IMG/VR virus record: IMGVR_UViG_2695420600_000008
From: a virus
Taxonomy: Duplodnaviria; Heunggongvirae; Uroviricota; Caudoviricetes
Length of the DNA stretch: 38,211 bases
Reading direction: 5' to 3' (one strand)
Each line of letters starts with the position of its first letter. Position 1 is the first letter of the stretch. The notes under the pieces are model-generated. The model worked only from the letters and a program-made list of their open reading frames with translations, was not told the origin of the DNA and searched no databases. Below are positions 3,739 to 18,294 of the stretch, piece by piece. The position numbers were made by a program, and so were the translations under genes.

Positions 3739-6532
3739 TATCCGGGTCGCTTTCAGCGCCGTTGACAGGCTGACCCGGCCTGCCGAAAACGCCCGCCGCC
3801 TGATGGGGCAGTTTGGTGACTCCATCCAGCGAACGCAGGGGGCGATCAAAAATCTCGAGCGTCAGGCGCGTTCATTTGAGCGCGCCCGTGACGCTGTCAG
3901 TAAAGCGGATGCGGGCATCGTGAAAGCACGACGCCAGCTTAACGCCCTTAATCAGTTACAACGCACGGGTACAGTGCTCAGCGAAAAACAACAAAAGCTG
4001 ATGCAGCAGTTAAGCACCCGGCTTGAACGCCTGAATGAATCGCGCACACGGGAAATTCAGAAAATGCGGGAACTTGGCGGAGAGCTGAAACGCCACGGCA
4101 TTTCCCTGACAGGCAGCGATAACACCATCCAGCAGGCCATCAGACGCACCGGACAATACAACAACCAGCTTGAACGCGAACGGCGGGCGCTTGCGCGTGT
4201 AACGCAGGCGCGTGAGCGGTATTCACGCGCGCAGGAAACAGCGGGAAAACTGAAAACAGGTGGTGCGCTGGCAACAGGTGCGGCGGCAGCGGGCGGCTAT
4301 GCTGCCGGGCGTTTTTTGCAGCCCGCTATCGGGTTCGGGAAAGAGATGTCCCGTGTTCAGGCACTGACGCGAATCGATAAAAACAGCCCGCAGTTTAAGG
4401 CGCTGCGTGAGCAGGCGTTAAAACTTGGCTCTGAAACGCAGTTCACCGCAGGCGATGCCGCCAGTGGACAGGCATTTCTTGCAATGGCTGGTTTCACACC
4501 GCAGGCCATTCAGGCTGCGCTTCCCGGCGTGCTGAGCATGGCAACGGCTGGCGGTATGGACCTCGGCGAGACGGCGGATATTGGTTCCAATATCCTGACG
4601 CAGTTCGGCCTCTCTGCTGACCAGATGGACCGGGTCGGTGACACACTTACCGCAGCGTTTACCCGTACCAACACTGACCTTCGCGCACTGGGCGAAACCA
4701 TGAAATATGCAGGTCCGGTGGCGGGTAAGCTGGGAATATCGCTGGAGCAGGCCGCAGCGATGGCGGGCGTGCTGGCGAAGATGGGTATCAGGGGGAGTGA
4801 TGCAGGTACAGCGTTGCGTAAAAGCCTGGCCAATCTGTCATCACCGCCAAAGGCAGCGGCAGAAGCACTGAAAGAGCTGGGGGTGTCAGTTGCTGACGCC
4901 AAAGGCAAAATGCGCCCGATGGAGAATGTGCTGGCCGATCTCTATAAAGCCACCCGCAAATACGGGGAGGTTGACCGGGTATCGTTCTTTAAGGACATTG
5001 CCGGAGAAGAGGCTTTCACATCATTTATGGGCCTCGTTGATGCGGCAGGTGACGGCTTCTTAGCCAAACTGAGAAAAGAACTTGAAGGCGCGCGCGGTGA
5101 GGCAGAACGCACGGCAAAGGTTATGGCCAATAACCTTGATGGCAACCTGAAATCACTCGGCAGTGCATGGGAAGGTCTGCGTATTCGCATCAGTGATCTG
5201 GTTGACGGTCCGCTGCGTTCTGTCACGCAGTGGCTCACGCGGGTTGTCTCAAAGGTGACGGCGCTGGCGCAGGCCCACCCGGCACTGACGCGCCAGTTAC
5301 TGATAGCGGGAGGCGCACTGCTGGCGACAACAGCAACGGTTGGTTCGTTGTCTCTGGTTATTGGGGTGCTTCACGGGAAGCTGGCTACGTTGCGTCTCGG
5401 TTTTTCTCTCCTGACCGAATCAATGAATGTTGTCAGGGTTCTGCCTGCATTATGGGGAATGGTGACGGGTTCCGTTTCTTTACTTGGTGGCGCTATCGGG
5501 GCGCTGTTCAGTCCGGTTAGTCTTATCGTGGCTGCGCTTGCCGGAGCTGCCGTTCTTATCTGGAAATACTGGGATCCCATCAGGGCATTTTTTGCCGGGG
5601 TGTTCAGCGGGATTATGGAAAGGCTGACCCCGTTGCGCGAAACCTTTGAACGGTTTGGCCCTGTTTTTGATGTCGTGCGCGATGGGATTATTCAGGTCTT
5701 TAACTGGTTTAAATCGCTGCTGTCACCGATGGAGTCCAGCAAGGAAACGCTGGATAAATGTGCCAGTGCTGGCGAGATATTCGGTAACGTTCTTGGCGGT
5801 GCGTTACAACTTGTTCTGACACCTGCAAAAATGCTACTGGATACGCTGGCGTGGATACTTGAAAAACTTGGCGTCCTTCCGGATGAAGCGGAAAGGGCGC
5901 GCAAGAAAATCGAAGACGCACAGCGTGCGGCCATTCTTCAGGACAAGGTTGCCTTGCTTCAGGGGGACCTGGCGAAAATCAATCCGCCGAAGCCTGTGGA
6001 AAATGGCAATGGCACCGGAGGTGATAAACCCAAAGACAACAAACCGCTCACAGACAGCAATACCGGGACGCTACGCAGACTCAGCAAAATTGCTGATAAC
6101 ACAGGTAAGCTGGTTGATGAGACGAAAAAACGCATTGGCCCCGGCGATATTGTCTTTAAGAACCTGCCCCGCGCACTTGCTGTTCGTGGGGAGTGGCAGG
6201 AGCGGAAGATTGCGCAGGTCAGTAAGCCTGCCCCCGCAATTAATATCACACCCGTGGTCCCGGCTCCGCTGCCTCCGGCGCTGGTCCCTGTTGTTGCGGC
6301 CAGCTCCCGCCCGGTGGCGGAGGCCATACGCTCTCCAGTGGCATCAGTTCCTGTAACTTCCCGTAACCGGGAGCCTGTTGCCTCCGGATTTGGTGGTGAA
6401 ATTCATGTTCATCTGCATAACGTTGTTACGCAGAATCCCCGCGAACTGGCGAAACTGGTCGGTGAAATGGTCAGGGCAGAAATGGAACGGCGCGCCCGTG
6501 CCGGGCGTGGCAGTTTTTACGATAAAGATTGA
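3716..6532 (+). CDS. T: tail tape measure protein (P2 gpT-like)
   Basis: Long ORF (3689..6532); alternative starts GTG 3689, ATG 3716, ATG 3725. Ala/Gly-rich central region, hydrophobic segment LLIAGGALLATTATVGSLSLVIGVL, positioned after E/E'. Confidence 0.85.
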   Translation: MQTMKTLDIRVAFSAVDRLTRPAENARRLMGQFGDSIQRTQGAIKNLERQARSFERARDAVSKADAGIVKARRQLNALNQLQRTGTVLSEKQQKLMQQLSTRLERLNESRTREIQKMRELGGELKRHGISLTGSDNTIQQAIRRTGQYNNQLERERRALARVTQARERYSRAQETAGKLKTGGALATGAAAAGGYAAGRFLQPAIGFGKEMSRVQALTRIDKNSPQFKALREQALKLGSETQFTAGDAASGQAFLAMAGFTPQAIQAALPGVLSMATAGGMDLGETADIGSNILTQFGLSADQMDRVGDTLTAAFTRTNTDLRALGETMKYAGPVAGKLGISLEQAAAMAGVLAKMGIRGSDAGTALRKSLANLSSPPKAAAEALKELGVSVADAKGKMRPMENVLADLYKATRKYGEVDRVSFFKDIAGEEAFTSFMGLVDAAGDGFLAKLRKELEGARGEAERTAKVMANNLDGNLKSLGSAWEGLRIRISDLVDGPLRSVTQWLTRVVSKVTALAQAHPALTRQLLIAGGALLATTATVGSLSLVIGVLHGKLATLRLGFSLLTESMNVVRVLPALWGMVTGSVSLLGGAIGALFSPVSLIVAALAGAAVLIWKYWDPIRAFFAGVFSGIMERLTPLRETFERFGPVFDVVRDGIIQVFNWFKSLLSPMESSKETLDKCASAGEIFGNVLGGALQLVLTPAKMLLDTLAWILEKLGVLPDEAERARKKIEDAQRAAILQDKVALLQGDLAKINPPKPVENGNGTGGDKPKDNKPLTDSNTGTLRRLSKIADNTGKLVDETKKRIGPGDIVFKNLPRALAVRGEWQERKIAQVSKPAPAINITPVVPAPLPPALVPVVAASSRPVAEAIRSPVASVPVTSRNREPVASGFGGEIHVHLHNVVTQNPRELAKLVGEMVRAEMERRARAGRGSFYDKD

Positions 6533-6538
6533 GGAGTC

Positions 6539-7033
6539 ATGGCCATGATGATGATCTACGGCATGTTTGTTTTTGAGCTGCGTACATTGCCGCATCAGCA
6601 GTTACAGCAAAACAAAAGCTGGCGGCATGTGAAAAATGAACGCGTTAACCGTTCGGCAAGCTGGCAGTATATCGGTGCAGGTGATGAGCGCATCGTTCTT
6701 TCTGGTGTGCTTTATCCTGAAATTACAGGTGGCGAAGTGTCGCTGTCGCTGCTGACCACGCAGGCGTATACAGGACGACCCTGGCCTCTGATTGATGGCG
6801 TCGGGCAGATTTACGGCATGTATGTCCTGACCGAAACGAATACGACCCGCTCCGAGTTTGATCGCTACGGTAAGGCGAAAAAGATAGAATTTTCACTGAC
6901 TCTTGAACGCTGTGATGAGGATTTGCGGGAGCGCCTGCAATCCTCATCGTTCAGCGATATGCTGTCCGGCTTCAAAGATAAGGTAACATCATCCCTTAAC
7001 AGCGCGGCCAGTTCAGTTAAAGGGTTGTTCTGA
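6539..7033 (+). CDS. U: tail protein gpU
   Basis: 164-aa ORF; GAGGAG Shine-Dalgarno upstream; motifs FVF.L.T.P.Q.LQ...SWRH and LSG.L.PE.TGG resemble P2 gpU. Confidence 0.8.
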   Translation: MAMMMIYGMFVFELRTLPHQQLQQNKSWRHVKNERVNRSASWQYIGAGDERIVLSGVLYPEITGGEVSLSLLTTQAYTGRPWPLIDGVGQIYGMYVLTETNTTRSEFDRYGKAKKIEFSLTLERCDEDLRERLQSSSFSDMLSGFKDKVTSSLNSAASSVKGLF

Positions 7034-7037
7034 TTTA

Positions 7038-7068
7038 ACACAAAAACCGCTAATGGTCAGATTAGCGG
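7038..7068. terminator. bidirectional rho-independent terminator between convergent U and invertase genes
   Basis: Hairpin aaccgctaat-ggtcag-attagcggtt flanked by T-runs on both strands. Confidence 0.6.
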
Positions 7069-7656
7069 TTATTTTGTTTCCTGACTCTTCTCTATTGTTC
7101 CGATTGATTCTCCTGCGGGGTGGTAACGATAAATCGTCGATATACCAATGCCGTAAATTATTGCCAGTTGTTTTCTGTCGTGCCCGTTTTTGATCAGCCT
7201 TGCTATTTGCTCATGCTGTTCTTTTGTCAGCTTCGGTCGACGTCCGCCTGTGCGCCCCCGTGCGCGTGCTGCCGCCAGTCCGGCCAGTGTACGTTCAACA
7301 ATTAATTCACGTTCCATTTCAGCCAGGGCACCCATCACGTGGAAGAAAAAACGCCCCATTGGAGAAGATGTATCTATGCTGTCGGTCAGACTGCGAAAAT
7401 TAATTCCTCGCTCCCGTAGTTCCCCGACGAGAGAAATCAGATGTTTCATGCTTCGCCCGAGGCGATCCAGTTTCCAGACAACCAGCGTGTCACCTTTTTG
7501 AAGGCGCTTTAAAGCGCGTTTTAATCCCGGTCGGTCTGTCTTTGTCCCGCTTAATTTATCTTCAAATATTTGTTCACATCCTGCACAAACAAGAGCGTTT
7601 CGTTGCAGGTCTGTATTCTGGTCATTTGTTGATACCCTTACATAGCCAATCAGCAC
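7069..7656 (-). CDS. serine DNA invertase (Gin/Cin/Pin/Hin family)
   Basis: ORF 7069..7674 (-); likely GTG start at 7656 giving MLIGYVRVSTNDQNTDLQRNAL..., the canonical N-terminus of Gin-family invertases with the catalytic serine in the VSTNDQ motif; GGGAG SD upstream; C-terminal helix-turn-helix (GISTIYRY). Confidence 0.9.
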   Translation of the reverse strand: MLIGYVRVSTNDQNTDLQRNALVCAGCEQIFEDKLSGTKTDRPGLKRALKRLQKGDTLVVWKLDRLGRSMKHLISLVGELRERGINFRSLTDSIDTSSPMGRFFFHVMGALAEMERELIVERTLAGLAAARARGRTGGRRPKLTKEQHEQIARLIKNGHDRKQLAIIYGIGISTIYRYHPAGESIGTIEKSQETK

Positions 7657-7683
7657 GCTGAATCTCCCGTCCAAAAGCGCAAA

Positions 7684-7744
7684 TCATGCCATGCAGGCCG
7701 GAAACGGCCATTATCTAAAACCTCGGTTTACAGGAAACGGTAAA
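7684..7744. repeat. left arm of 61-bp perfect inverted repeat (pairs with 10778..10838)
   Basis: Reverse complement of 7684..7744 is identical to 10778..10838; contains the 26-bp gix-like site plus a 27-bp outer flank. Confidence 0.9.
7711..7736 (+). other. gix/hix-like 26-bp invertase crossover site 1 (TTATCTAAAACCTCGGTTTACAGGAA)
   Basis: Differs at one position from the Mu gix sequence as I recall it (TTATCCAAAACCTCGGTTTACAGGAA); central TC dinucleotide at 7723..7724. Confidence 0.85.
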
Positions 7745-8747
7745 CAAGGCTGGTAACGCCGTGCAAAAAAATGGCGATACGTTGTCCGGTGGACTTACTT
7801 TTGAAAACGACTCAATCCTTGCCTGGATTCGAAATACTGACTGGGCAAAGATTGGGTTTAAAAATAATTCGGATGCAGACACCGATTCCTACATGTGGTT
7901 TGAAACAGGCAACAACGGCAATGAATATTTCAAATGGAGACACCGCATCATTGGCACCCGGCCTAAAGACCTGATGAATCTTAAATGGAATGCTTTGTCT
8001 GTTCTTGTTGAAGCCCTTTTCAGCAGTGAAGTGAAAATATCGACAGTCAATGCACTGAGGATATTTAATTCATCTTTTGGTGCCATTTTTCGTCGTTCTG
8101 AAGAATGCCTGCATATCATCCCTACACGAGAGAATGAAGGGGAAAATGGTAATATAGGGCCACTACGCCCCTTTACGCTTAATCTCAGAACTGGCCGGAT
8201 AAGCATGGGGCATGGTCTTGATGTTACAGGGGATATATTTGCAAACCGTTTTGCAATTAACAGTAGTACCGGCATGTGGATTCATATGCGTGACCAGAAT
8301 GTTATTTTGGGACGTAATGCGGTATCCACTGATGGTGCTCAGGCTTTGCTCCGTCAGGACCATGCCGACCGCAAATTTATGATTGGCGGTCTGGGAAATA
8401 AGCAATTTGGCATCTACATGATTAATAACTCAAGGACAGCCAATGGCACCGATGGTCAGGCGTACATGGATAATAACGGGAACTGGCTTTGCGGCTCGCA
8501 AGTTATTCCCGGCAACTATGGCAATTTTGATTCCAGATATGTGAAAGATGTTCGACTTGGTTCACAGCAATATTATGGAGTGAACAACTGGCAAACATGG
8601 AATTTTCAGTGCCCGTCAGGCTATGTACTGACGGGGATTAACGTACAGGATACCGGAAAAAACTCTGCCGATAATATTGCAGGCGTTCATTACAGGCCAG
8701 TGCAAAAGTATATAAATGGCACTTGGTATAATGTGGCGAGTATTTAA
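7737..8747 (+). CDS. tail fibre C-terminal variable cassette Sv' (no start of its own; expressed only after inversion fuses it to H)
   Basis: Frame is open from crossover site 1 through ORF 7761..8747; encodes [46 protein letters not shown]...YVKDVRLG...[11 protein letters not shown], which matches the C-terminal portion of P2 gpH as I recall it. Confidence 0.8.
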
Positions 8748-8748
8748 T

Positions 8749-9276
8749 ATGATGCACTTAAAGAACATAAAAGCAGGTAATGCTAAAACAGTGGAGCAGT
8801 ATGAGTTAACAAAGAAGCACGGAGTCATCTGGCTTTACTCTGAGGACGGAAAAAACTGGTATGAGGAAGTGAAGAACTTTCAGCCAGACACAATAAAGAT
8901 TGTTTACGATGCAAATAATATTATTGTCGCCATCACCAAAGATGCCTCCACGCTTAACCCTGAAGGTTATAGCGTCGTTGAGGTTCCTGATATTACAGCT
9001 AATCGTCGTGCTGATGATTCCGGTAAGTGGATGTTTAAGGACGGAGCTGTGGTTAAACGGATTTATACGGCTGACGAACAGCAACAACAGGCCGAATCAC
9101 AAAAGGCCGCATTGCTTTCCGAAGCTGAATCAGTCATCCAGCCGCTGGAACGCGCTGTCAGGCTGAATATGGCGACGGACGAGGAACGCACACGACTGGA
9201 AGCATGGGAACGCTACAGTGTTCTGGTCAGCCGTGTGGATACGGCAAAGCCAGAATGGCCACAAAAGCCTGAGTAA
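8749..9276 (+). CDS. tail fibre assembly protein (tfa, P2 G / Mu U family) paired with cassette Sv'
   Basis: ORF 8716..9276; start ATG 8749 directly after the Sv' stop; [11 protein letters not shown]...[13 protein letters not shown]... typical Tfa N-terminus. Confidence 0.85.
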
Positions 9277-9282
9277 AAATTA

Positions 9283-9302
9283 AGGCCCGATATCGGGCCT
9301 TG
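9283..9302. terminator. bidirectional terminator hairpin between convergent tfa genes
   Basis: aaggcccgatatcgggcctt perfect hairpin with a flanking T-run. Confidence 0.55.
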
Positions 9303-9304
9303 TT

Positions 9305-9838
9305 TCATTCTGGTTGTTCGGGAAACGTTACTGGCAGGCTGGAGGTGTCTGTGGATTCAACCTTCTGCGCATAGAGCATCCACTCGGTTAATTTTTGTTT
9401 ATTCTCGTCGGAAATAATGCCCAGCCGTAGCTGTGAGTCCCATAGCTGGGTTTTATCCCTGACGAGCTGTAGCAGGCTTTGCTTTTCATTTTCCGCTTGT
9501 TGCCTCTGCTCTTCCCCGGTATAAGTTCGCTTTATCACTACGCCATCTTTGAACATCCATTTACCTGAAATATCAGCCCGGCGATTTGCTGTAATATCAG
9601 GAACCTCAACGACGCTTGCGCCTTCCGGATTAATTGCTGAAACATCCTTTTCAATACAAATAATAACGCCGTTGTGGTCATAGACCATTTTCAACGTATC
9701 AGGCTGAAAGTTCTTTTGTTCCTCATACCAGTTTTTCCCATCCTCTGTATAAAGCCATTTGATGTTAAATTGTTTCGTTAGCTGGTATTGCTCTTTTGTT
9801 TCAGGATTACCAGCAGAAATGTTTTTTAAGTGCATCAT
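9305..9838 (-). CDS. tail fibre assembly protein (tfa) paired with cassette Sv
   Basis: 177 aa; [40 protein letters not shown]...; paralogous to 8749..9276. Confidence 0.85.
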   Translation of the reverse strand: MMHLKNISAGNPETKEQYQLTKQFNIKWLYTEDGKNWYEEQKNFQPDTLKMVYDHNGVIICIEKDVSAINPEGASVVEVPDITANRRADISGKWMFKDGVVIKRTYTGEEQRQQAENEKQSLLQLVRDKTQLWDSQLRLGIISDENKQKLTEWMLYAQKVESTDTSSLPVTFPEQPE

Positions 9839-9840
9839 CG

Positions 9841-10785
9841 TTAAATACTCCCCGCGTTATACCACGTCCCATTAATGCAATACTGAATTGGCCTTGCCTG
9901 AGTTGTATCAATTAGTTCATCTCTGTTTGAGTTAACGGAACCGGTAACAACATAACCTGACCTGTCAGACCATCCGGGACCATTCCATGTCTGAACAGAT
10001 AACAGACCACCAAGGCGAATACCTGTAATAAACCTTGAGTTACATTCTGCCTGCGTATATGCACCAACATCTCCCGCAGAGGGTTTGCGGGTTGTGGTGT
10101 AAAACTCTGACCAGTCAGCTTCAAAGCCATAACCATCACGCGCTGAACGATAAAAAATACCGCCGTTCCTGTAATTCACGCGGAACTGTACAGCAGGGCA
10201 GCTCCCCGTATTCATATTGAAGTGGAGGATTAATGTCGATGCGCCACCAATGTTTGCGTTATAGACCCCGCTATTCCAGTTCCAGCCAACAGCTTTATCA
10301 TTTCCGACAGTGCTTCCTGTTTGCCCTAAAGCAAATGCAGGTTGTTGATTTTTCGTGTTGTAGTCTCGTCGCCAGCCAGGAGCGTAAGCATCACCATGAT
10401 TAATATAAGTGAATTGAGCGTTAGTAATTCCGCCACCGCTGGACGTGCTCGGCGTGGTAACGCGTATGGTCATTGCGCCGCGAGTGCCAATAACTTCCAC
10501 CACAGCACCTGCAAGACAAATATTTCCGCAACCTGTATCTGTAATGACCTTATTATTTGCATAAGCCCATGAGCCTTTGCACATCCAGTAAGGATGGTTA
10601 AATGCTCCCTGACTCTCCAGCCACGAAATAAATTGCGCGGTTGTCCAGACCTGACTATCGCCACCAATATTCAGCCATGAGCTATATGCGCGGCAGGCAC
10701 CAATATTTTTGGTGAAGGTATCTTTCCCCGGAATATCTGCGCCGTTCTGGTTTTTCTGTAATGCGCCAGAAGCCTGATTTACCGT
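9841..10785 (-). CDS. tail fibre C-terminal variable cassette Sv (start-less, in frame with crossover site 2)
   Basis: ORF 9841..10584 stays open upstream to site 2 (…[27 protein letters not shown]…); ends INGTWYNAGSI like cassette Sv'. Confidence 0.8.
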   Translation of the reverse strand, partial: TVNQASGALQKNQNGADIPGKDTFTKNIGACRAYSSWLNIGGDSQVWTTAQFISWLESQGAFNHPYWMCKGSWAYANNKVITDTGCGNICLAGAVVEVIGTRGAMTIRVTTPSTSSGGGITNAQFTYINHGDAYAPGWRRDYNTKNQQPAFALGQTGSTVGNDKAVGWNWNSGVYNANIGGASTLILHFNMNTGSCPAVQFRVNYRNGGIFYRSARDGYGFEADWSEFYTTTRKPSAGDVGAYTQAECNSRFITGIRLGGLLSVQTWNGPGWSDRSGYVVTGSVNSNRDELIDTTQARPIQYCINGTWYNAGSI

Positions 10786-10838
10786 TTCCTGTAAACCGAG
10801 GTTTTAGATAATGGCCGTTTCCGGCCTGCATGGCATGA
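10778..10838. repeat. right arm of 61-bp inverted repeat (pairs with 7684..7744)
   Basis: Perfect reverse-complement identity to 7684..7744. Confidence 0.9.
10786..10811 (-). other. gix-like crossover site 2 (exact reverse complement of site 1)
   Basis: TTCCTGTAAACCGAGGTTTTAGATAA read directly. Confidence 0.85.
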
Positions 10839-10841
10839 CTA

Positions 10842-11994
10842 AATAGCTGCGCTTAATACCGCTACACTTTTGCCAGCCCATGTTTGCCTCCGGGGAATGG
10901 GCTGACGGTTTCCATAAAATGGCGAACTTTTTTCAACAGTTGCCACATTGAGCTGCACTGATGATTACGCGTTATTGTGTCGTGAAGTGCCTGCCATAGC
11001 CGTTCAACATGATTCACCCATGGCGAGTAAACCGGCTGATAAATGACCCTGAACTTCGGGTTCTCCTTCAGCCAGCTCTGTGTTTCCCGGCTTTTGTGGA
11101 TAATGTAGTTGTCCACGATCAGCGTGATGGTTTTCGCCCGACGGTATGTCGCTTTAAGCCGCTTCAGCAGGCTGATGAACAGCGCCGAACTTTTGCTGTT
11201 GCCGCCCACACAGCTGACTTTACCTGTCCCGCTGTGCAGCGCTCCGGCCAGATAATATTTTTCATTCTGTCCCGGCGTGACCACCCGTTTTTGCTGTCCG
11301 CGCAGTTGCCAGTCCGCACCGATTTTGGGATTAAGATGGATATCCACTTCATCTTCATAAAAGACCGGATGCTCTGCGCTGCATTCGTCCAGTGCTTTAT
11401 GGATTGCTGCCATCTTTTCATCTTTATGCGGGTCACGGATACGCAGAGTTGGCGCAGCCCTTCGCCACACAATCCCCGCAGACGGCAACCAGCGGCGAAC
11501 GGTTCCGGCATTTAACTGGCAACCGGTTATCTCATTGATTTTTATTGCCAGCAGTTCTGTACTCCAGCGTGAACGCTGGTAGCCAAAGTCGCCGGGAGAA
11601 TGTTTTACCAGCTCACGTAACAGTGTGCAGATATGCTCAAACGGCCAGCGACGGGCACGCCCGGCAGGTAATGATTTCAGTCCCTCAACACCCGACTGCG
11701 TGAACCAGTTAATCCAGCGTCCAACAGAGGAACGGGCGCAGCAGAGCGTTCTGGCAACGTCGCTGACACGGTCGCCCCGGTGCAGCATCAGCATGGCAGT
11801 CAGTCTGCGGGCATAATTTTTATCGTGTGTTTTATGGATGGCTTTCTGCATCAGGCGTCGTTCGTCACGGGAAATTGGTGCTATGATCGGCATTGCTCAG
11901 TCCGGTTGGTGATTTGTTTTGATTTGGCGATTGATCAGATCGCACAATCCGGGCTAAGTTCCCTCAAAGTGATCTACTATTCCGCGCAGCTATT
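10842..11994 (-). mobile_element. complete IS630 insertion sequence (1153 bp) with TA target duplication in a CTAG site
   Basis: Element length 1153 bp; flanked by C-TA (10839..10841) and TA-G (11995..11997), the expected IS630 CTAG/TA signature; imperfect terminal inverted repeats starting aatagctgcgc; encodes a 343-aa transposase. Confidence 0.9.
10862..11893 (-). CDS. IS630 transposase (IS630/Tc1-mariner superfamily DDE transposase)
   Basis: 343-aa ORF wholly inside the element; size and position match IS630 transposase. Confidence 0.9.
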   Translation of the reverse strand: MPIIAPISRDERRLMQKAIHKTHDKNYARRLTAMLMLHRGDRVSDVARTLCCARSSVGRWINWFTQSGVEGLKSLPAGRARRWPFEHICTLLRELVKHSPGDFGYQRSRWSTELLAIKINEITGCQLNAGTVRRWLPSAGIVWRRAAPTLRIRDPHKDEKMAAIHKALDECSAEHPVFYEDEVDIHLNPKIGADWQLRGQQKRVVTPGQNEKYYLAGALHSGTGKVSCVGGNSKSSALFISLLKRLKATYRRAKTITLIVDNYIIHKSRETQSWLKENPKFRVIYQPVYSPWVNHVERLWQALHDTITRNHQCSSMWQLLKKVRHFMETVSPFPGGKHGLAKV

Positions 11995-13284
11995 TAGACC
12001 TCCTTTAATTTTGGCCCCGTGGCTGACAGATATAGCACCTGTTCTCAGATTTATAGCGAATGGCCTTAATGGGCCGATATTACCGTTTTCGCCTTGTCCT
12101 TCAGCCGTCGGAATGAAATGAAGAAAATCTTCTGAACGACGGAAAATTAGACCGAAGGTATCATTGAAAATTCGCAGCGCATTCACCGTGCCAATTTTCA
12201 GTTCTCCGGTCATTTTATCGCCGGAACGCTGAACGGCGTTACCAGCCTTGTTTACCGTTTCCTGTAAACCGAGGTATTCGATAACGGCAGCAACGGTCGA
12301 TTTCGCAAGAATATCCCGCCCGACTTTTGTCAGGGTTGCCAGGCTGGCGACATCATTCCCCGTAAAATACGGAAACCTGTCTGCCGCAGTAGCAAGCCCC
12401 GCCAGCGCCGTCAGAGTGGCATCTTTCGGTTGCTTACCCGCAAGCGCGTTAGTCATGGTGGTCGCAAAATTCGGGTCGTTGCCCAGCGCCGCCGCCAGCT
12501 CGTTCAGTGTGTTCAGTGCATCAGGCGAAGAGTCTACAAGTGCGGCAATCGCAGCCATAACGAAAGCCGTGCTTGCGATTTGGGTATTATTCGTTCCCTG
12601 TCGCGCAGTTGGTGTTGTTGGCGTTCCGGTCAGTGCCGGGCTGTTTAATGGGGCTTTCTTGTTCGTTTCATCCATTACTGCCTTAACGGCTTTTGGTGTC
12701 GCTGCCAGCGTTTCAGACGTGCTGTTGGTGGCGTTGCTGAGCTGGACAAGGCCTTTTGCGGTCAGCGAGGCGTCCGGGTGACGTCGTGACTGTTCATGCT
12801 CTTTCAGTTTGTCATCCACGTAATTCACTGTGGCCATCACCATGGTGTTATCCACGGTAAGCGCCACAGTGGCAGTGCTGGATACGGTCAGAATGGTGCG
12901 AAATGTTTGTGCACGTCCGGATCCTTCGGCAACGGTTGGCTTGTAACTTTCGGCAGTATTGCCTACCGCGATCAAATCGCCGTGCTCATCAAACACACCA
13001 ATTTCCCGGATCCAGAATCCGCCCGTTTCAGGAGGAATAACCAGCTCCGCAATAATGTGGTTCTGATGTGTTGCGTCCAGGGTGACGCGATTAACGGTAT
13101 GTCGCCACACCTCATGCACAAGACGGGTCTGCTTACTGTCTGGCGTGGGTAAAGTACCGCCGCCGTCACCCACGGCCATATGTGTCAGGCGGACAGGTTT
13201 CCCATCTGGCGCGGTTGCCTGCGCTAATTTTTTTGCACCCGTATCGGTGATAATGGTTTTAAATTTTCGTGTTGTGGTACTCAT
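11977..13284 (-). CDS. H: tail fibre protein gpH: constant N-terminal part fused in the current orientation to a truncated third cassette and terminated inside IS630 (functionally truncated fibre)
   Basis: 435-aa ORF; N-terminal ~330 aa resemble P2 gpH (…TAKGLVQLSNATNSTSETLAATPKAVK…AAVIEYLGLQETV); after crossover site 3 it encodes a collagen-like stub (…[22 protein letters not shown]…GAKIKGG) and then reads LNSCAE-stop from IS630 sequence. Confidence 0.8.
   Translation of the reverse strand: MSTTTRKFKTIITDTGAKKLAQATAPDGKPVRLTHMAVGDGGGTLPTPDSKQTRLVHEVWRHTVNRVTLDATHQNHIIAELVIPPETGGFWIREIGVFDEHGDLIAVGNTAESYKPTVAEGSGRAQTFRTILTVSSTATVALTVDNTMVMATVNYVDDKLKEHEQSRRHPDASLTAKGLVQLSNATNSTSETLAATPKAVKAVMDETNKKAPLNSPALTGTPTTPTARQGTNNTQIASTAFVMAAIAALVDSSPDALNTLNELAAALGNDPNFATTMTNALAGKQPKDATLTALAGLATAADRFPYFTGNDVASLATLTKVGRDILAKSTVAAVIEYLGLQETVNKAGNAVQRSGDKMTGELKIGTVNALRIFNDTFGLIFRRSEDFLHFIPTAEGQGENGNIGPLRPFAINLRTGAISVSHGAKIKGGLNSCAE
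12259..12284 (-). other. gix-like crossover site 3 (TTATCGAATACCTCGGTTTACAGGAA on the coding strand), in-frame junction of constant H
   Basis: Two mismatches to sites 1/2 (TCGAAT vs TCTAAA); unlike sites 1 and 2 it has no in-frame TAA, so H reads through it; 12233..12275 is also the reverse complement of the inner flank of site 1. Confidence 0.8.
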
Positions 13285-13286
13285 GC

Positions 13287-13817
13287 TTAATCGTCCGGAT
13301 AAATGGTAATGACTTCACCGTCGTAAGTTGCTGCTGCCGCGAAAATATCTCCCTGAATCTCCTGAATGATATTCAGCCCTGTCATGTGGCGGCTGACCGG
13401 GCGGGCATCAGCAATCAACCGCTCCATTTCCAGATACATTTCCTCCGTCACGCCACTGTCCAGCGTGCCAACATCAATCTTGAATGTTCCGGGTTCGCCG
13501 TTGAACTCCCACCACTCAGACACGCGAATGAGGTATCCCAGCGGCTCAATGGCCCGTCGCAGGGCGCTGATGGTTCCTTTGTGTCGGTGTATCAGCCATG
13601 CATCACGAATCACCTGTCGCTTTGTCTCTTCCGGCCAGTTGCGATCCCAGCGGTCAACGGAAAACGCCCAGGCGAGATAAGGCAGCAGATGCACCGGGCA
13701 GGTGTCCGGCGACCACAGCGTGTTGAGGTCTGCCGGAATGTCTGTAATGCGTGTTCCGACGGCTTCGGCACAACGCATGAAATTGCTGGCTGATGGTGGT
13801 AACAGTGAATTACTCAT
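13287..13817 (-). CDS. I: baseplate/tail protein gpI
   Basis: ORF 13287..13850; preferred start 13817 (MSNSLLPP…); motif LWSPDTCP.HLLPYLAWAFSVDRWD..WPE matches P2 gpI. Confidence 0.85.
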   Translation of the reverse strand: MSNSLLPPSASNFMRCAEAVGTRITDIPADLNTLWSPDTCPVHLLPYLAWAFSVDRWDRNWPEETKRQVIRDAWLIHRHKGTISALRRAIEPLGYLIRVSEWWEFNGEPGTFKIDVGTLDSGVTEEMYLEMERLIADARPVSRHMTGLNIIQEIQGDIFAAAATYDGEVITIYPDD

Positions 13818-14706
13818 TACGCCCACCTTCGCTGATGGTGAATGACTCACAGCGCGCCGCCTGTATGTCGCTGATGGCCATATTCTGTGTGGGTTCGATT
13901 ATCTCCACGCGTTGCACACCGTGCACATGCAGTGCGGCAGCAATGGCGGACAACGCCACGTCCTGACCGATAAGCCCCTGCTCAGCCAGCCACTTCCTGA
14001 ACGACGATTCAGCCGCAGCCAGAATAGGTTCGGATTCCGGACCGGGGTAAAAGTACAGTTTTGCATTCAGCCGCCATGTCACGATTCTGGCACTCTGTAC
14101 GGTCAGGCGGTCGGCCACCGGGCGGGTATCCTCTGCATTCAGAACGGCGCGAACGGTATTAAGCAACGCCTCCGTTGCTGTGCCGTCGCCCTCAGTGGAC
14201 AGGATGGAAACCGTCACATTTGCCGGAGACGGACTGATGGCCCGCGCATCGCGCACCAGACCGCTGGCGCTGCGGGCAAAATACTCGTATGCGCCTGACG
14301 GGCCTGCAACACTCAGGCCGTCATACGCCCGCTGCGCCCGCAGTCTCAGCGAGGTGTCGTTCTCCATCACCACGTCGGTGGTATCCGTTGCCGGAGTGAT
14401 AACCAGGCGCTTTGTGTTCATATTGCCCGCGAGGTTGTCCAGGTCTGTTCCGGCGCTGTGGCTCAACATGCAGGCGCGTGCGGCCTCATTGACCCGCTGG
14501 CGTAACAGCATTTCACGAAACGACATGGTTTGAGCGATAACGTTCAGGGGTTCCGATTCCAGTTCCAGTGCGGCGGAGACGACTTCACGCTGTTCGGCGG
14601 GATAAGCTGCAATCATCATGGCCTTTGTGTCAGCCAGAATTGCCTCAAAGTCAGGCTCCGCGATGATGGCGGGTTCCGGTAACTGGGAAAGGTCAACGGC
14701 AGGCAT
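13810..14706 (-). CDS. J: baseplate assembly protein gpJ
   Basis: 298 aa; position between W and I; size and synteny match P2 J. Confidence 0.8.
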   Translation of the reverse strand: MPAVDLSQLPEPAIIAEPDFEAILADTKAMMIAAYPAEQREVVSAALELESEPLNVIAQTMSFREMLLRQRVNEAARACMLSHSAGTDLDNLAGNMNTKRLVITPATDTTDVVMENDTSLRLRAQRAYDGLSVAGPSGAYEYFARSASGLVRDARAISPSPANVTVSILSTEGDGTATEALLNTVRAVLNAEDTRPVADRLTVQSARIVTWRLNAKLYFYPGPESEPILAAAESSFRKWLAEQGLIGQDVALSAIAAALHVHGVQRVEIIEPTQNMAISDIQAARCESFTISEGGRNE

Positions 14707-14709
14707 GAT

Positions 14710-15060
14710 TTACTCCCTCAGCGTGATGGTTAATTCAACATTCTGCATGGTCTGCATGACAGTGCCCGACAGCGTCACCCCGGCGTGGCCTCCTGCCTTC
14801 CAGACAACGTCGATGGCGTTCAGGGCAATGCGTGGTTCCCATCGTGTCAGTGCAATCACGGTAGCACTCATGCATTGCAGACGCGTGGTGTTATTCATGG
14901 GTTCGTCAATCAAATCAGGCACAAGGCTGCCATATTCCCGTCGCATAACCCGGCTTGCCAGCGGGGTGGTCAGGATGTCCCTGACTGACTGTTTCAGGTG
15001 CGCCATATCGTTCAGGTTTCCCGTCCCGTCCGGGTTCATTCCTGTGTAGCGGGTTGTCAC
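14710..15060 (-). CDS. W: baseplate assembly protein gpW (gp25-like)
   Basis: 116 aa; MTTRYTGMN…SVRDILTTPLASRVMRREYGS resembles P2 gpW. Confidence 0.85.
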   Translation of the reverse strand: MTTRYTGMNPDGTGNLNDMAHLKQSVRDILTTPLASRVMRREYGSLVPDLIDEPMNNTTRLQCMSATVIALTRWEPRIALNAIDVVWKAGGHAGVTLSGTVMQTMQNVELTITLRE

Positions 15061-15638
15061 TGCGGGCCTCCTGTCGAATCGCTGCCACCTTTAACGCCAC
15101 CGTGCTTATGCGTATGCACTGTGATGCCGTTTGAGGTGAAATCGCCGCCGCTGTGCGTGATATTGCCGCTCATCGTTCCCCCTTTTGTGACGTCAAGCGT
15201 CGCTGTTCTCAGAAGGTCTGTGCATTCCACGACAGGCGTGTTCAGTGTCACGCTGATGGATGCCTGCAAAGTGGCCGTTTTCATGCCGCTTGCGCTCAGT
15301 GCGCCTGCGTCCGCGTCGTAGCGGAACACCGCGCCGTCCGGCGCGCTGACCACGATTTCTTTCAGGCTTTTGCCGGGTGCCGGAATGGCATCACTCCACA
15401 GGCTGCCGATTATCATGGCGGTTTCCGGGTTGCCGCCGATGCAGGCAATTGCCACCTGTTCGCCTGGTGATGGCGGAAACCACACGTTGAAGTCTCCCGC
15501 GCGCGTGGTGTTCCAGCGCAGCCAGCCTGTTTCCAGTTCGCCGCTGCGAACGCGCACGCACCAGGATTCCTCATCAACTTCAGAGATGATCCCGGTGCGG
15601 ATGATATTGCTCAGCAGTCGCATGAGTTCTGCGCTCAT
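15057..15638 (-). CDS. V: baseplate spike/assembly protein gpV
   Basis: 193 aa; glycine-rich C-terminus GITVHTHKHGGVKGGSDSTGGP; synteny. Confidence 0.8.
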   Translation of the reverse strand: MSAELMRLLSNIIRTGIISEVDEESWCVRVRSGELETGWLRWNTTRAGDFNVWFPPSPGEQVAIACIGGNPETAMIIGSLWSDAIPAPGKSLKEIVVSAPDGAVFRYDADAGALSASGMKTATLQASISVTLNTPVVECTDLLRTATLDVTKGGTMSGNITHSGGDFTSNGITVHTHKHGGVKGGSDSTGGPQ

Positions 15639-16270
15639 CGTACAGCCTCCGCAATCCGGCCCAGCACCGTGTTATAAATCAGGCGCTCATCTGCCTGGCT
15701 GATACCCAGCAGCTCACGTACCGGGTAATCGGTGAAAATGCCCGGCGCAACCTGATCGCGCTCACCGAACTGATGAACGCGTGCAATACGTGCGGCCACG
15801 CCGCTGTAACCCACCGTCACACCGGAAGCATCTGCACGGGCTTTCAGGTAGCGGGCGGTGCGCAGTTTTACGAACATGGAGACGCGCCTGGTGCTGTCCT
15901 GGTTGATGCGCCGGGTGCGTATTTCCAGAAAACGGTCGATGTCATCCCGGTAAAACGTGCGGATATTGTTTTTATCCTCATCCCACCCGGTGATGGTTCG
16001 CCCGTATTTCCCCGTGTCGTGATGCCAGTTTTTCAGCGTGCGTGCTTCGTTATTCCAGATAAAGCGAATGCGCTCCTGTATCCGGGTTACGCGGCGTCTG
16101 CGTGGTGTCCATGCGGTCCCGTCCGGCGCTTTCTGTGACCGGATACGCGCCTGCTGGGCGCGGCGTAAATCCTGTGCCAGCTTTCTGGCGATGTTATTAA
16201 TGGCCTGCTGATTCAGGCTGTCGCGGATAGCCTCAAAGGTTTCATCCACGCGGGTGAATGCCTTATCCAT
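15635..16270 (-). CDS. phage virion morphogenesis / tail completion protein (gpS-like)
   Basis: 211 aa at the S position between R and V; C-terminal VHQFGERD motif resembles the tail-completion S family. Start uncertain. Confidence 0.6.
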   Translation of the reverse strand: MDKAFTRVDETFEAIRDSLNQQAINNIARKLAQDLRRAQQARIRSQKAPDGTAWTPRRRRVTRIQERIRFIWNNEARTLKNWHHDTGKYGRTITGWDEDKNNIRTFYRDDIDRFLEIRTRRINQDSTRRVSMFVKLRTARYLKARADASGVTVGYSGVAARIARVHQFGERDQVAPGIFTDYPVRELLGISQADERLIYNTVLGRIAEAVR

Positions 16271-16730
16271 CGCTTTCCCCCCACGTCACATCCTGGAATA
16301 CATGCGACCAGTCGCCTTCGGAAGAGGGCAGGCGGGGTTTTGGCTCCGGCAGGTGTTCTGCCTGCGGTGTGCCCTGACTGCTGCGCGTGATGCGAACGCG
16401 TTCCCGCAGGGGGAGCGTAAACAGGAGATCGGCGCTGTCATCGTCATTGATAACGGCGGAAAATTTGATGTCCTGATTACGCTCCGGATTGAGCAACAAC
16501 TGTGGCTGATTTTCGGATAACCACGCCAGCAGCGGCAGCGTGAGGTCGTCCAGCTCTCCGGCGTAATCCATGACAAACATCACTATCTGATAGCGGTAAA
16601 CAAACGATGGGGTTTCTCCGGTCGTTTCAATGTTGCCGCTCTCCACGAAAATGGTGAATTTTTCCGGGTTGGCATGACACCACCGGCATGAACGGGTCAT
16701 GGCTTCACGCAGGGAATCAGTTTTCAGCAT
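16263..16730 (-). CDS. R: tail completion protein gpR
   Basis: 155 aa; MLK.DSLR…IFV..G…L.AWL.ENQP resembles P2 gpR. Confidence 0.8.
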   Translation of the reverse strand: MLKTDSLREAMTRSCRWCHANPEKFTIFVESGNIETTGETPSFVYRYQIVMFVMDYAGELDDLTLPLLAWLSENQPQLLLNPERNQDIKFSAVINDDDSADLLFTLPLRERVRITRSSQGTPQAEHLPEPKPRLPSSEGDWSHVFQDVTWGESDG

Positions 16731-17007
16731 GGTTGTTGTCCTCGTTGTTCAGTCGTTGCAGCCTGCGCTGTTCCAGTAATTCAATGGCCCGCTTATCGGC
16801 GTTACAGGTTTCCAGTGCGTCCATGAGGCTGTCGCTCCATATCCCGATGTTTCCCCATGATGGCGTCACCGGAAACGGCGGGGGAAGTACGGGGGCGGTC
16901 AGCCCTTCCGGGATGAAACGGAACGACGGCGGCGGCGCGGACGCGTTCTGCGTGCTGGTGCAACCGCTCAGTAAAGCGAGCGTCAGGAACAGCGCGGGCA
17001 CATGCAT
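16717..17007 (-). CDS. outer-membrane spanin (o-spanin lipoprotein, LysC/Rz1-like)
   Basis: Start at Met 17007 gives MHVPALFLTLALLSGCTS, a signal peptide with an L-S-G-C lipobox; proline-rich; overlaps the 3' end of the i-spanin gene in another frame. Confidence 0.7.
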   Translation of the reverse strand: MHVPALFLTLALLSGCTSTQNASAPPPSFRFIPEGLTAPVLPPPFPVTPSWGNIGIWSDSLMDALETCNADKRAIELLEQRRLQRLNNEDNNHAEN

Positions 17008-17275
17008 CTGTCGTGATATCGTTGCGTAGCTGTTCACGTCGGATTTCCCCTTCCTGTTGTCGGTTCTGGCGCGCTGTCATGACGTCACGCAGTACACCGG
17101 ATGCGGTGCTGATGATGGTGCCGGCCTCTTTCAGGGTCCGGCTGTAATCGTCCAGTTGCGCCTGTGTATAACGGTTGTGTCCGTCTTCCTGCCCCAGTCT
17201 GAATGTCTGCCAGAGTGTTATGGTCAGCAGCGTGAGGACGGTCAGTGCCATCATCAGGATGTAACGCACTTTCAT
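16802..17275 (-). CDS. inner-membrane spanin (i-spanin, LysB/Rz-like)
   Basis: N-terminal transmembrane helix (ILMMALTVLTLLTITLW) followed by a charged helical region; directly downstream of the endolysin; the spanin pair is overlapped rather than embedded or separate. Confidence 0.65.
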   Translation of the reverse strand: MKVRYILMMALTVLTLLTITLWQTFRLGQEDGHNRYTQAQLDDYSRTLKEAGTIISTASGVLRDVMTARQNRQQEGEIRREQLRNDITTDACARAVPDARFTERLHQHAERVRAAAVVPFHPGRADRPRTSPAVSGDAIMGKHRDMERQPHGRTGNL

Positions 17276-17820
17276 GACTGGCCTCCGGTGTCACGTAAGC
17301 ACCATGCACGAAAATCAGTACGACGGTTAACCAGTCCCTGTGAGCGTTCGCCGCCGCTGTTCACGAAGTCAGTCAGTCTGTTGCACATGTCAGGCCAGTT
17401 GTGCGCCTGTGCATGTTTCCAGATAGTGGTGCGGTGGTAGTTACGGTTCTTATCCCTGAACCACATAAGATTTCTGCATCCAAGATTAAAGGCGGCATCT
17501 GTCATTGCCTCAAACGCGGACTGTGGCATGGCGTTGCCGCTGAAGTTCTGATTTATGCAGTTTTCTGCATGTTGCATATCATTAACCCAGCGCCCGGCGA
17601 CTTCCGTTTCGGTGTACAGACGATTTTCCACATGCCCGGTCGAGCCGCACCCCACGGTCATTACCCCGGCAATATCCCGGTAAGGCGTTGCGCGACAGTC
17701 CTCCCATGTGGCAATGCGGATTTGCGCTTCCGGGCTGGTCCGGAGTTTGTGAGGGGCAATGGAGAACCCCAGCGCCACAATGGCGGCTACGGCGTAACGT
17801 TTAACGGGCAGCTTTATCAT
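17272..17820 (-). CDS. endolysin, lysozyme-like (GH24-type), probable signal-anchor-release (SAR) N-terminus
   Basis: 182 aa; N-terminal hydrophobic segment YAVAAIVALGFSIAP followed by E-x8-D-x5-T spacing (WEDCRATPYRDIAGVMTVGCG) resembling P21 R21-type SAR endolysins; this is not the P2 gpK type. Confidence 0.7.
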   Translation of the reverse strand: MIKLPVKRYAVAAIVALGFSIAPHKLRTSPEAQIRIATWEDCRATPYRDIAGVMTVGCGSTGHVENRLYTETEVAGRWVNDMQHAENCINQNFSGNAMPQSAFEAMTDAAFNLGCRNLMWFRDKNRNYHRTTIWKHAQAHNWPDMCNRLTDFVNSGGERSQGLVNRRTDFRAWCLRDTGGQS

Positions 17821-18103: not shown

Positions 18104-18294
18104 AGCTGTATCATCTCTCGTTGTTTTTTCTTCTCCGGCTCCGGCATTTCCACCTCCTGTCCGGCTTCCAGAAATACCTGTCGGCAGAGTCCGGGGTTGG
18201 CATCCAGCACCTTTTCGGTGACGCCCTGCGTCGTGCCGTAGTACCGGAAACAGAGCGAATCCACGGTGTCGCCTTCCAGTGTCTTCACTTTCAT
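18097..18294 (-). CDS. X: tail protein gpX (LysM-like)
   Basis: Start at Met 18294: MKVKTLEGDTVDSLCFRYYG…ANPGL… closely resembles P2 gpX. Confidence 0.8.
   Translation of the reverse strand: MKVKTLEGDTVDSLCFRYYGTTQGVTEKVLDANPGLCRQVFLEAGQEVEMPEPEKKKQREMIQLW

Follow-up and report, generated by a model that had tools for sequence, protein, structure and literature searches.

The question raised by this locus is whether a copy of IS630 has broken the tail-fibre gene of the prophage in which it lies, and whether the interrupted cassette was already a remnant, beside a third crossover site, when the element arrived. The stretch analyzed (the window; 38,211 nt) holds a P2-like prophage and is the entire contig CXCN01000033.1 from the draft assembly of a Shigella sonnei isolate (GCA_001251255.1, WGS prefix CXCN01) (Table 1). 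The IS630 copy inside a phage tail-fibre cassette is genuine, but neither the element nor its kind of target is new; IS630 at the CTAG of a prophage gene is routine in the IS-rich genome of S. sonnei, and the finding is ordinary. Whether this prophage has a broken fibre gene in the first place is doubtful, and its ORF labelled tail fibre protein H may be chimeric.

Table 1. Coordinates of the fibre locus and of the IS630 copy in the window.
Feature	Position	Strand	Remarks
Gin/Pin-type serine DNA invertase gene	7069..7656	(-)	195 aa; Pfam Resolvase + HTH_7
Crossover site 1	7711..7736	(+)	Beside invertase gene, before Sv'A
Sv'A variable cassette and fibre-assembly gene U'A	7761..9276	(+)	Sv'A 7761-8747; U'A 8749-9276
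SvB variable cassette	9841..10777	(-)	Followed by fibre-assembly gene UB, 9305-9838
Left-hand contig end, 60 nt	10778..10837	(-)	Outer crossover-site half + 22 nt pin-leader flank
Crossover site 2	10786..10811	(-)	TTATCTAAAACCTCGGTTTACAGGAA; before SvB
Scaffold gap, then C-TA	10838..10841	.	C-TA opens the right-hand contig; L004 reads ...GCTATTTAG N CATGCC
IS630, complete copy	10842..11994	(-), transposase gene's strand	1153 bp; termini AATAGCTGCGC; ~99.5% identity to RefSeq IS630
IS630 transposase gene	10862..11893	(-)	343 aa, intact; Pfam DDE_3 (PF13358) + HTH domains
ORF annotated tail fibre protein H	11977..13284	(-)	435 aa; CSP49952.1; constant part + stub + 5 IS codons
Right IS junction, TA-G	11995..11997	.	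Read sequence, at native CTAG of SvC cassette
Repeat common to lambdoid stf locus	11995..12376	(-)	382 nt; last 87 nt of H constant part, T 12289, site 3, whole stub
Stub	11997..12251	(-)	First 85 SvC variable-cassette codons; 97.9% identical to E. coli cassettes, 100% to S. sonnei siblings
Crossover site 3	12259..12284	(-)	TTATCGAATACCTCGGTTTACAGGAA; end of H constant part
SvC 3' part			TAGCTATTGGAGC, expected after the IS630 end

The initial annotation described a complete IS630, and the length, the termini, the intact transposase gene and the identity to RefSeq copies (named "IS630-like element IS630 family transposase") all agree with this. The terminal inverted repeat is perfect over its 11 outermost nucleotides and imperfect further inward, and the 343-aa transposase scores 258.6 bits against NCBIfam NF033545 (cut-off 100) and is in sequence exactly the Shigella IS630 transposase, present on 670 contigs. 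Two hallmarks of the IS630 family were thereby found, namely a length of ~1.15 kb with short terminal inverted repeats and a single DDE transposase with an N-terminal HTH. IS630 prefers CTAG/TA targets (Tenzen and Ohtsubo 1991, as cited in PMC6811581 and PMC2170065). Around the element the window has C at 10839, TA at 10840-41, TA at 11995-96 and G at 11997, which had been taken for a TA duplication within CTAG. On the right side the CTAG target is confirmed: intact SvC cassettes (L002, L007) read GGAGGTCTAGCTATTGG at the insertion point, so the CTAG there is native to SvC, and from the edge of the IS outward window positions 11995-23287 are 100% identical over 11.3 kb to positions 11290-1 of the sibling contig L007. 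What is present is a genuine, complete IS630 at the native CTAG of an SvC-type cassette, which it cuts after 85 codons. The reading frame, too, is as first described, with H running through ...LGLQETVN into a stub of 85 residues and stopping inside the element, five codons in (...GGL-NSCAE-stop). Other parts of that description are not upheld. The stub is not collagen-like, the impression being due to a single chance G-x-y run (GENGNIGPL); it represents the N-terminal, conserved portion of a fibre cassette that is already known. Nor is a cassette reduced to a stub before the IS arrived supported, since the CTAG is native to intact copies and the siblings that are identical over 11.3 kb carry a full 637-aa H-SvC. 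A search through protein clusters for the contig of this assembly with the 3' part of SvC gave only a 126-aa ORF for the SvC C-terminal part, which several S. sonnei genomes have and which could not be linked to this assembly. In other S. sonnei assemblies, the same fibre gene is truncated in other ways.

The left side of the element does not have the same standing. In the public record of the same contig (L004), position 10838 is an N where the window file has A, and this is the sole difference across 21,308 compared bases. The left IS junction is therefore a scaffold join and not read sequence. Moreover, the C-TA to the left of IS630 is common to other copies of the element and opens the right-hand contig next to the N, so that it does not demonstrate a TA duplication at this locus. 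The same N bears on everything that had been built across it. The element does sit 1 bp outside a 61-bp inverted repeat in the window file, where 7684-7744 and 10778-10838 match exactly, but this geometry spans the N, and the sequenced part of the repeat is 60 nt only. Removal of the IS does give a frame that reads GGLVMPCRPETAII-stop as computed, but the empty site so reconstructed spans the scaffold gap. Neither an illegitimate joint nor a third site on the same molecule is demonstrated, because in the public record the N stands between the IS and the sequence beyond it; the window file has three crossover sites, but the N falls between site 2 and site 3. Sibling scaffolds of the same accession series also have single Ns between unrelated sequences (L006 9740, L008 6938), and identical blocks of 450-987 nt and of 3.4 kb are each present twice in them. 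According to PMC5320598, a Velvet/SSPACE/GapFiller pipeline used for 299 S. sonnei genomes leaves Ns where read pairs join contigs, and false joins are warned of there. The same pipeline may lie behind this contig.

The prophage carries three of the features by which Gin, Pin, Cin and Hin systems are recognized: an adjoining serine invertase gene, two inverted crossover sites, and an in-frame swap of the C-terminal cassette. The invertase matches the solved Gin invertase structures 4M6F and 3UJ3 (E = 4e-101), the core CCTCGGTTTACAGGAAAC is found in every crossover site of the window, and sites 1 and 3 match over 59 nt at 93%. Complete S. sonnei genomes with this prophage have two crossover sites only. 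Three loci (L018, L009 and L011) align to window positions 3305-10815 and 12244-17311, the two blocks sharing one site, and in the complete genome L013 the SvB-site-flank sequence adjoins pin. Excision of 10816-12243 in silico restores the structure of the complete genomes and yields an Hc-SvB fusion with an H of 656 aa, while inversion in silico between sites 1 and 3 yields an H of 678 aa; each is identical to a sibling protein, proteins of both lengths are also called in complete genomes, and both orientations of the segment occur among genomes. The prophage had been judged probably fibre-defective. Since the link from the IS to H is a repeat that also lies behind the lambdoid stf gene, and since the excision leaves an intact fibre gene, this judgment is not supported. 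In other S. sonnei assemblies, the pin-proximal crossover site is split by an IS3-family element.

The reading that we favor, at a probability of roughly 70%, is that two contigs were falsely joined, that site 3, the stub and IS630 form a detour, and that IS630 truly lies in an SvC cassette elsewhere. The left-hand contig (1-10837) would carry the invertible segment as it normally occurs in the P2-like prophage of S. sonnei (pin, site, Sv'A/U'A, UB/SvB), and its end would be the 60-nt de Bruijn overlap tail (k-1, with k=61 inferred solely from the length of the tail) of the alternative inversion junction, pin flank/site/SvB. This contig stops exactly 60 nt beyond the last SvB-specific base, its last 60 nt are identical to the reverse complement of 7685-7744, and the flank/site/SvB junction next to pin is found in the complete genomes L013 and L016 and in the sibling L006. 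An overlap tail of the inverted-state junction would imply that the culture sequenced contained the segment in both orientations. The right-hand contig (10839-38211) would start where the flanks of different IS630 copies cease to be identical, at C-TA, and would reach H through the 382-nt repeat that sibling strains also have behind a lambdoid stf gene. From 12376 downward, L006 8294-9046 and L008 6026-6778 match the window with 100% identity, and this copy lies behind a 918-aa stf gene, itself after lambda J and Lom genes. The piece comprising site 3, the stub and IS630 would then have been set between the two halves of a single Hc/SvB crossover site. The actual arrangement of the prophage would be the normal Hc-site-SvB (or Sv'A), with IS630 interrupting an SvC cassette whose 3' part is on another contig, in whichever fibre locus has SvC. 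Because the 382 nt are shared with stf and the excision restores the structure of complete genomes, the third site, the empty site as reconstructed, and a stub older than the IS would all be assembly products; comparison with related genomes thus essentially points to the misassembly that the initial annotation had itself named as fatal to its account. Several points speak against a detour, among them that a true joint would likewise leave a single N. The scaffolder needed read pairs to set the two contigs side by side, and with inserts shorter than the IS the linking pairs would have to fall within IS630 itself. Also, L019 shows that a P2 H-SvC gene exists in some S. sonnei strains.

The latter point is part of the case for a simple insertion, in which the H of this prophage is truly fused to SvC, IS630 lies in its CTAG, and only the attachment of the SvB contig is false; the remaining SvC and its assembly gene would be on another contig, and H would stay truncated for as long as no inversion supplied a different cassette. 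Four sibling contigs and the independent assembly L019 have the P2 late region followed by the 637-aa H-SvC gene, the right junction is at a native CTAG, and the perfect identity to L007 extends over the 11.3 kb up to the IS. We nevertheless consider this unlikely, if worth keeping in mind. Base 12289 is T in the window and in the stf-linked copy and C in every complete genome, and the window pairs this T with a constant region of the complete-genome type, which lacks the 12 SNPs found together with SvC both in L019 and in the stf-linked copies (in L019, where P2 late genes are linked to SvC, these stf-type SNPs lie at window 12377-12541). Moreover, the H-SvC copies of the siblings are exact duplicates of the stf-linked copies on the same scaffolds, and complete genomes join this H to SvB or Sv'A only. 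Two distinct P2-like late regions were considered as the source of the two Hc haplotypes and rejected: across window 12290-15700, almost every S. sonnei copy is identical or differs by at most 1 base, and this holds for both copies of the sibling scaffolds, with L016 as the divergent exception.

If the structure were real exactly as written, an illegitimate head-to-tail joint of the cassette to the pin-leader flank (...GGTCTAG / TCATGCC...) would have made the third site and an 85-codon null cassette, IS630 would have entered the CTAG of the joint later or been there already, and the N would be one unread base. The invertase would in that case switch the prophage among two working fibres and an OFF state lacking a fibre, and enumerating the inversions of the window as written does give four isomers, two of them expressing full-length fibres. 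The polarity of the joint fits a tandem duplication of the natural block of flank, site and SvC 5' part, as in L002 4927-5243, and the scaffolder found linking pairs. The single N is exactly the base count that completes the 61-nt repeat; hence a true joint would also leave a single N, and a bridging node shorter than 2k could have been dropped. We rate this as quite improbable all the same. It demands that the break fell no more than 1 bp from the sole CTAG of the cassette, at a joint without microhomology; neither TA nor CTAG stands before the flank in any natural copy examined; and the Ns of the sibling scaffolds, the two-site complete genomes, the stf-identical 11995-12376 and the L019 SNPs all oppose it. 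With or without the IS, the joint was found in no genome searched. Across 5,426 complete E. coli genomes, the IS-free joint (stub-CTAG-flank-site-SvB) was nowhere matched over 80% or more of its length, the best matches being Hc joined to SvB via one site, and neither IS junction was found, IS630 itself being the sole match. The 441-aa "empty-site" protein was absent from the top matches among 5.8 billion protein clusters, which returned the 637-aa intact H-SvC of S. sonnei. The other real events that we tried (a deletion next to the IS, a tandem duplication of flank, site and SvC 5' part, integration of a circle with one site, inversion between the Hc site and a site at the pin remnant, and invertase acting at a pseudo-site) are disfavored by the same lack of microhomology and the same constraint on the breakpoint, and the N at 10838 in the public record makes them unnecessary; the variant flank of the pin remnant (GGCCAGAAACCGCC) mismatches that of the window. 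Homologous recombination between two IS630 copies, one in SvC and one beside the invertible segment, by which two loci would have been fused around a single IS whose flanks are unrelated, seems to us very improbable indeed. S. sonnei carries multiple copies of IS630, deletions between such copies have been suggested for its fliC region (PMC6811581), and a hybrid of any two would keep the appearance C-TA...TA-G, since each copy lies in a CTAG. This would, however, require TA, preferably in CTAG, directly before TCATGCC, and the left junction is unread. Every S. sonnei or E. coli locus fetched reads ...AAA TCATGCC at this point, mostly with GCGCAAA. A natural CTAG before TCATGCC, which a second canonical insertion would need as well, was absent among the best-scoring of 624 natural flank copies in E. 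coli; their matches all begin at TCATGCC, and about 105 records that match the 61 nt perfectly are among them.

The biological importance of the locus is small, an invertible fibre segment being a textbook Gin/Pin-type system. The main lesson is one of method: a single base in place of an N gave a scaffold join the look of a joint by illegitimate recombination, of a perfect repeat of 61 nt and of a third crossover site. Short-read scaffolds may string alternative junctions together where invertible segments are of mixed orientation and where cassettes are common to several prophages, and structural claims at such places require read-level or long-read support.

Set beside known systems, the insertion resembles IS-driven gene decay in S. 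sonnei, where a strain-specific IS630 likewise lies at a CTAG within fliC (PMC6811581), although the target there is a chromosomal operon and here a prophage fibre cassette. The element does not differ from the IS630 of S. sonnei (IS630/Tc1/mariner family) in length, terminal repeats, transposase or a CTAG with TA adjoining the end, but only one of its junctions is sequenced in the window. Multi-site inversion systems are represented by Min of plasmid p15B and by the shufflons, and the window as written likewise has three sites and three cassettes. Unlike those systems, its third site lies beyond a scaffold gap and complete genomes have two sites, and the resemblance is most likely a product of the assembly. 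Further parallels are the G segment of Mu, the C segment of P1 and the P region of e14, which likewise have a Gin-like serine invertase, 26-bp inverted crossover sites and two opposed alternative cassettes for the fibre C terminus, each with its own assembly gene and fused in frame after inversion; the start of SvB, taken with its site and flank, shares 93.7-95.4% identity with the right boundary of the G segment in Mu and D108. Unlike in Mu, P1 and e14, the segment here belongs to a P2-like prophage, with the tail-sheath-to-U genes converging from the other side, and the same layout of the segment in a P2-like prophage is found in E. coli O103 strain 12009.

A complete IS630 lies in the window with the coordinates and bordering bases that the initial annotation had read (C at 10839 and TA at 10840-41 on the left; TA at 11995-96 and G at 11997 on the right). 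It is ~99.5% identical to RefSeq copies annotated "IS630-like element IS630 family transposase", and its 343-aa ORF, with DDE_3 and HTH domains (NCBIfam NF033545, 258.6 bits; cut-off 100), is identical to the Shigella IS630 transposase found on 670 contigs. The CTAG/TA target behaviour of IS630 is published (Tenzen and Ohtsubo 1991, as cited in PMC6811581 and PMC2170065), and S. sonnei genes hit by IS630, fliC for example, are documented (PMC6811581). The reading of the tail-fibre gene H also held: H continues past crossover site 3 for 85 residues, ending ...IKGGL, and then reads NSCAE-stop within the element, and in-silico removal of IS630 leaves the frame ...GGLVMPCRPETAII-stop, as claimed. 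What did not survive is the description of this stub as collagen-like. Its sole G-x-y run is GENGNIGPL, and the stub forms the conserved beginning of SvC, a fibre cassette already known; it is 97.9% identical to cassettes in E. coli P2-like prophages.

The right side of the element argues for a genuine transposition. Uninterrupted SvC reads GGAGGTCTAGCTATTGG in E. coli (locus L002) and in S. sonnei (L007), so that CTAG is native to the intact cassette. CTAG occurs 4 times in the 38,211 nt of the window, against ~61 expected from dinucleotide-preserving shuffles, and therefore the prophage offers very few preferred IS630 targets. A 637-aa H-SvC protein from four sibling S. sonnei contigs matches the window's product at 100% identity over 98% of the query, that is, as far as the IS, and L007 11290-1 is 100% identical to window 11995-23287. 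The switch from cassette to IS630 exactly at CTAG is good evidence for a real insertion.

On the left of IS630, the sequence is not the cassette continuation CTATTGG... but TCATGCCATGCAGGCCGGAAACGG, followed by site 2 and cassette SvB. The normal place of TCATGCCATGCAGGCCGGAAACGG, the flank, is between a crossover site and the invertase gene. The joint, with or without IS630, was absent from all 5,426 complete E. coli genomes searched; among 624 E. coli flank copies, the matches of the best-scoring ones start at TCATGCC and leave out the CTAG that precedes it in the joint; every fetched locus reads ...AAA TCATGCC, mostly GCGCAAA; and no 441-aa "empty-site" protein was among the top matches in the protein collection.

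The ORF at 11977-13284 (minus strand, 435 aa) is found on one public contig only, CXCN01000033.1 (GCA_001251255.1; 38,211 nt, the entire window), as "tail fiber protein [Shigella sonnei]" (CSP49952.1). When the fetched loci were scanned for the flank, the public record of this contig proved to read ...GCGCAGCTATTTAG N CATGCCATGCAGG..., with N at window 10838, where the window file has A; this is the sole difference, base by base, over 21,308 nt (window 1977-23284). IS630 therefore has a scaffold gap at its left junction, and the window reads as two contigs, 1-10837 and 10839-38211. Several features fit such a join. The first contig ends exactly 60 nt past its last SvB-specific base, and these final 60 nt are the reverse complement of 7685-7744; such a tail fits the de Bruijn node overlap expected for an inferred k of 61, with the SvB-site-flank path re-entering the invertase-side node. 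The second contig begins with C-TA, which is the limit of agreement among IS630 copies, because the copies sit in CTAG sites; other copies align to the window from 10839 to 11997.

Single Ns between unrelated sequences also occur in sibling scaffolds (e.g., L006 9740 and L008 6938), and alignments of these scaffolds to the window begin or end at those Ns. Blocks of 450-987 nt and of 3.4 kb also occur there as exact duplicates, and independent duplicates of this kind are not something that a de Bruijn assembler can generate. In L008, exact S-V-W-J-I-Hc duplicates (Hc being the constant part of H) at 56-3467 and 7585-10995 are split by single Ns and carry a different cassette on each copy; L006 has three Hc-site junctions. 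The duplicated blocks look like gap filling in which the same reads were reused, and the fibre locus is unreliable in sibling draft assemblies. A Velvet/SSPACE/GapFiller pipeline used for 299 S. sonnei genomes sets k at 66-90% of read length and places Ns where read pairs link contigs, and its authors warn that two of its tools are greedy and may produce false joins (PMC5320598); its genome list includes S. sonnei assemblies with accession prefixes neighbouring the window's.

By gene content, the prophage is P2-like: one strand bears the terminase, capsid, lysis, R, S, V, W, J, I, and H genes, and from the opposite side the tail sheath, tube, E, T, and U genes run towards them. Between these blocks lie a serine invertase gene and the fibre cassettes. 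The crossover core CCTCGGTTTACAGGAAAC has three copies in the window file, with sites 2 and 3 as direct repeats and site 1 inverted relative to both. In-silico inversion between sites 1 and 3 yields an H of 678 aa, and joining sites 2 and 3 yields one of 656 aa; each is residue-for-residue identical to a protein annotated in sibling S. sonnei assemblies, and gene calls in complete genomes include proteins of both lengths. A perfect palindrome, AAGGCCCGATATCGGGCCTT (9283-9302), separates the two convergent fibre-assembly genes and probably acts as a bidirectional terminator; a sibling contig stops right next to it, at a position matching window 9301.

Coordinates of the invertase gene, crossover sites, and IS630 in the window
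Feature	Coordinates	Strand	Remarks
Invertase gene	7069-7656	minus	Matches solved Gin invertase structures, E = 4e-101
Site 1	7711-7736		Adjoins invertase gene; precedes cassette Sv'A and its assembly gene
Site 2	10786-10811		Precedes cassette SvB and its assembly gene
IS630	10842-11994		1153 bp; AATAGCTGCGC at both ends, inverted orientation
Site 3	12259-12284		End of H's constant part

Complete S. sonnei chromosomes, reached via the exact UB protein, show a simpler arrangement. Three of them (L018, L009, and L011) align to window 3305-10815 and 12244-17311 with one 45-nt site common to both alignments, and therefore read Hc-site-SvB directly. L016 and L013 (HE616528.1, strain 53G) have the opposite orientation, with SvB-site-flank continuing into the invertase leader. 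Thus, the prophage is a plain two-site, two-cassette system, both orientations of which are found among genomes, and the flank-site-SvB at the end of the first contig is the alternative inversion junction. The initial annotation had allowed that related genomes might expose the stub-IS arrangement as a misassembly, and in essence they do. Set against the complete genomes, the window is 1,428 bp longer (10816-12243), the surplus being made up of flank, gap, IS630, stub, and a further copy of the site. In other complete genomes (L010 3771-4992, also L014, L015, and L017), an IS3-family element with a 385-aa transposase lies within the invertase-side crossover site (flank: ...CCATTATCTAAAAC|TGAGGTAGCCTGAG), an insertion that should lock the invertible segment of those strains in one orientation.

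IS630 is probably not in this prophage's own H. Window 12290-15700 is identical, or different by at most 1 base, in nearly every fetched S. sonnei copy, including complete genomes (L016 is the divergent exception). The one marker nearby is position 12289: the window has T, but all of the complete genomes, whose H joins SvB or Sv'A, have C. Siblings L006 and L008 carry a lambdoid stf (918 aa) after lambda J C-terminal and Lom genes, and this stf shares its terminal crossover site and SvC with H. Between 12376 and 11995, T 12289 included, the stf-linked copy matches the window at every base, and it differs only upstream of 12376; within L006 and L008, stf-linked and H-linked SvC agree over 987 and 453 nt, until a single N. 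With the single T/C difference at 12289 set aside, H and stf share an identical run of ~144 nt (roughly 12233-12376); this exceeds the inferred k and lets an assembly path cross between the two genes there. L019 (AAUVWZ010000046.1, of a different accession style) links P2 late genes to the 637-aa H-SvC, and its H is a mosaic: besides the T, it carries 12 substitutions of the stf type within window 12377-12541. The window is without these 12, and its combination of complete-genome-type constant region, T, and SvC looks chimeric.

More broadly, stf in L006 (6914-9740) and L008 (6026-6937) shares with the P2-like H its last ~450 nt (95.8% identity), the crossover site, and SvC; fibre cassettes and sites are thus common to two prophage kinds in one genome. 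L007 13922-14187 (also L006, L008, and L019) holds an invertase remnant with a variant crossover site, CCTCGGTTTACGAGAAC, and a variant flank; only ~190 nt of the invertase gene is left, and beyond it lies a fragment similar to the terminal part of a lambdoid fibre-assembly gene. Differently truncated H proteins are annotated in other S. sonnei assemblies (P0125, P0128, P0129, and P0133, in the cluster of the window's H): two leave the crossover region and enter the invertase gene on its reverse strand (window 7120-7305 and 7353-7418), and one is broken within SvB. They may reflect genuine deletions, IS insertions, or further pipeline joins. The last 126 SvC residues stand as a separate protein (P0179; relatives P0193 and P0202) on eight S. 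sonnei contigs, one a complete chromosome, and some contigs with this ORF start or break at ...LYKD|IESNGSN..., which suggests that SvC is interrupted elsewhere in other strains.

The reading that we favour, with a probability of about 0.7, is that IS630 really inserted at the CTAG of some SvC cassette in this genome, and that the site-stub-IS630 piece was threaded onto the P2 H contig via the shared repeat. The threaded piece would then have been scaffolded beside H's true neighbour, the end of the invertible segment that carries SvB, with one N marking the join and the SvC remainder on another contig. The fibre gene of this prophage would probably be intact, and the initial annotation's view of a probably fibre-defective prophage is not supported. 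Against threading, the scaffolder required linking read pairs, a true joint also would leave one N, and P2 H-SvC genes exist, as in L019.

That IS630 truly lies in this prophage's H-SvC, with only the link to SvB false, we consider unlikely. It is very improbable that the structure is real as written and the N is one unread base, even granting that the polarity of the joint is that of a tandem duplication of the natural block of flank, site, and SvC 5′ part (L002 4927-5243); if true, four inversion isomers would result, and two of them would have full-length fibres. Recombination between two IS630 copies is scarcely credible and is contradicted by the flank, which has no TA or CTAG ahead of it in the best-scoring of the 624 copies or in the fetched loci. 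No part of this is new in kind, and the interesting inference is most likely an assembly artefact.

The element is IS630 itself, and the layout of the window's prophage recurs in E. coli O103:H2 strain 12009. Multi-site inversion systems are exemplified by Min of p15B, and resemblance to these depends on the site beyond the scaffold gap. The fibre switch belongs with the Gin/Pin/Cin systems, and the right boundary of the Mu and D108 G segment is 93.7-95.4% identical to the window's SvB start, site 2, and flank.
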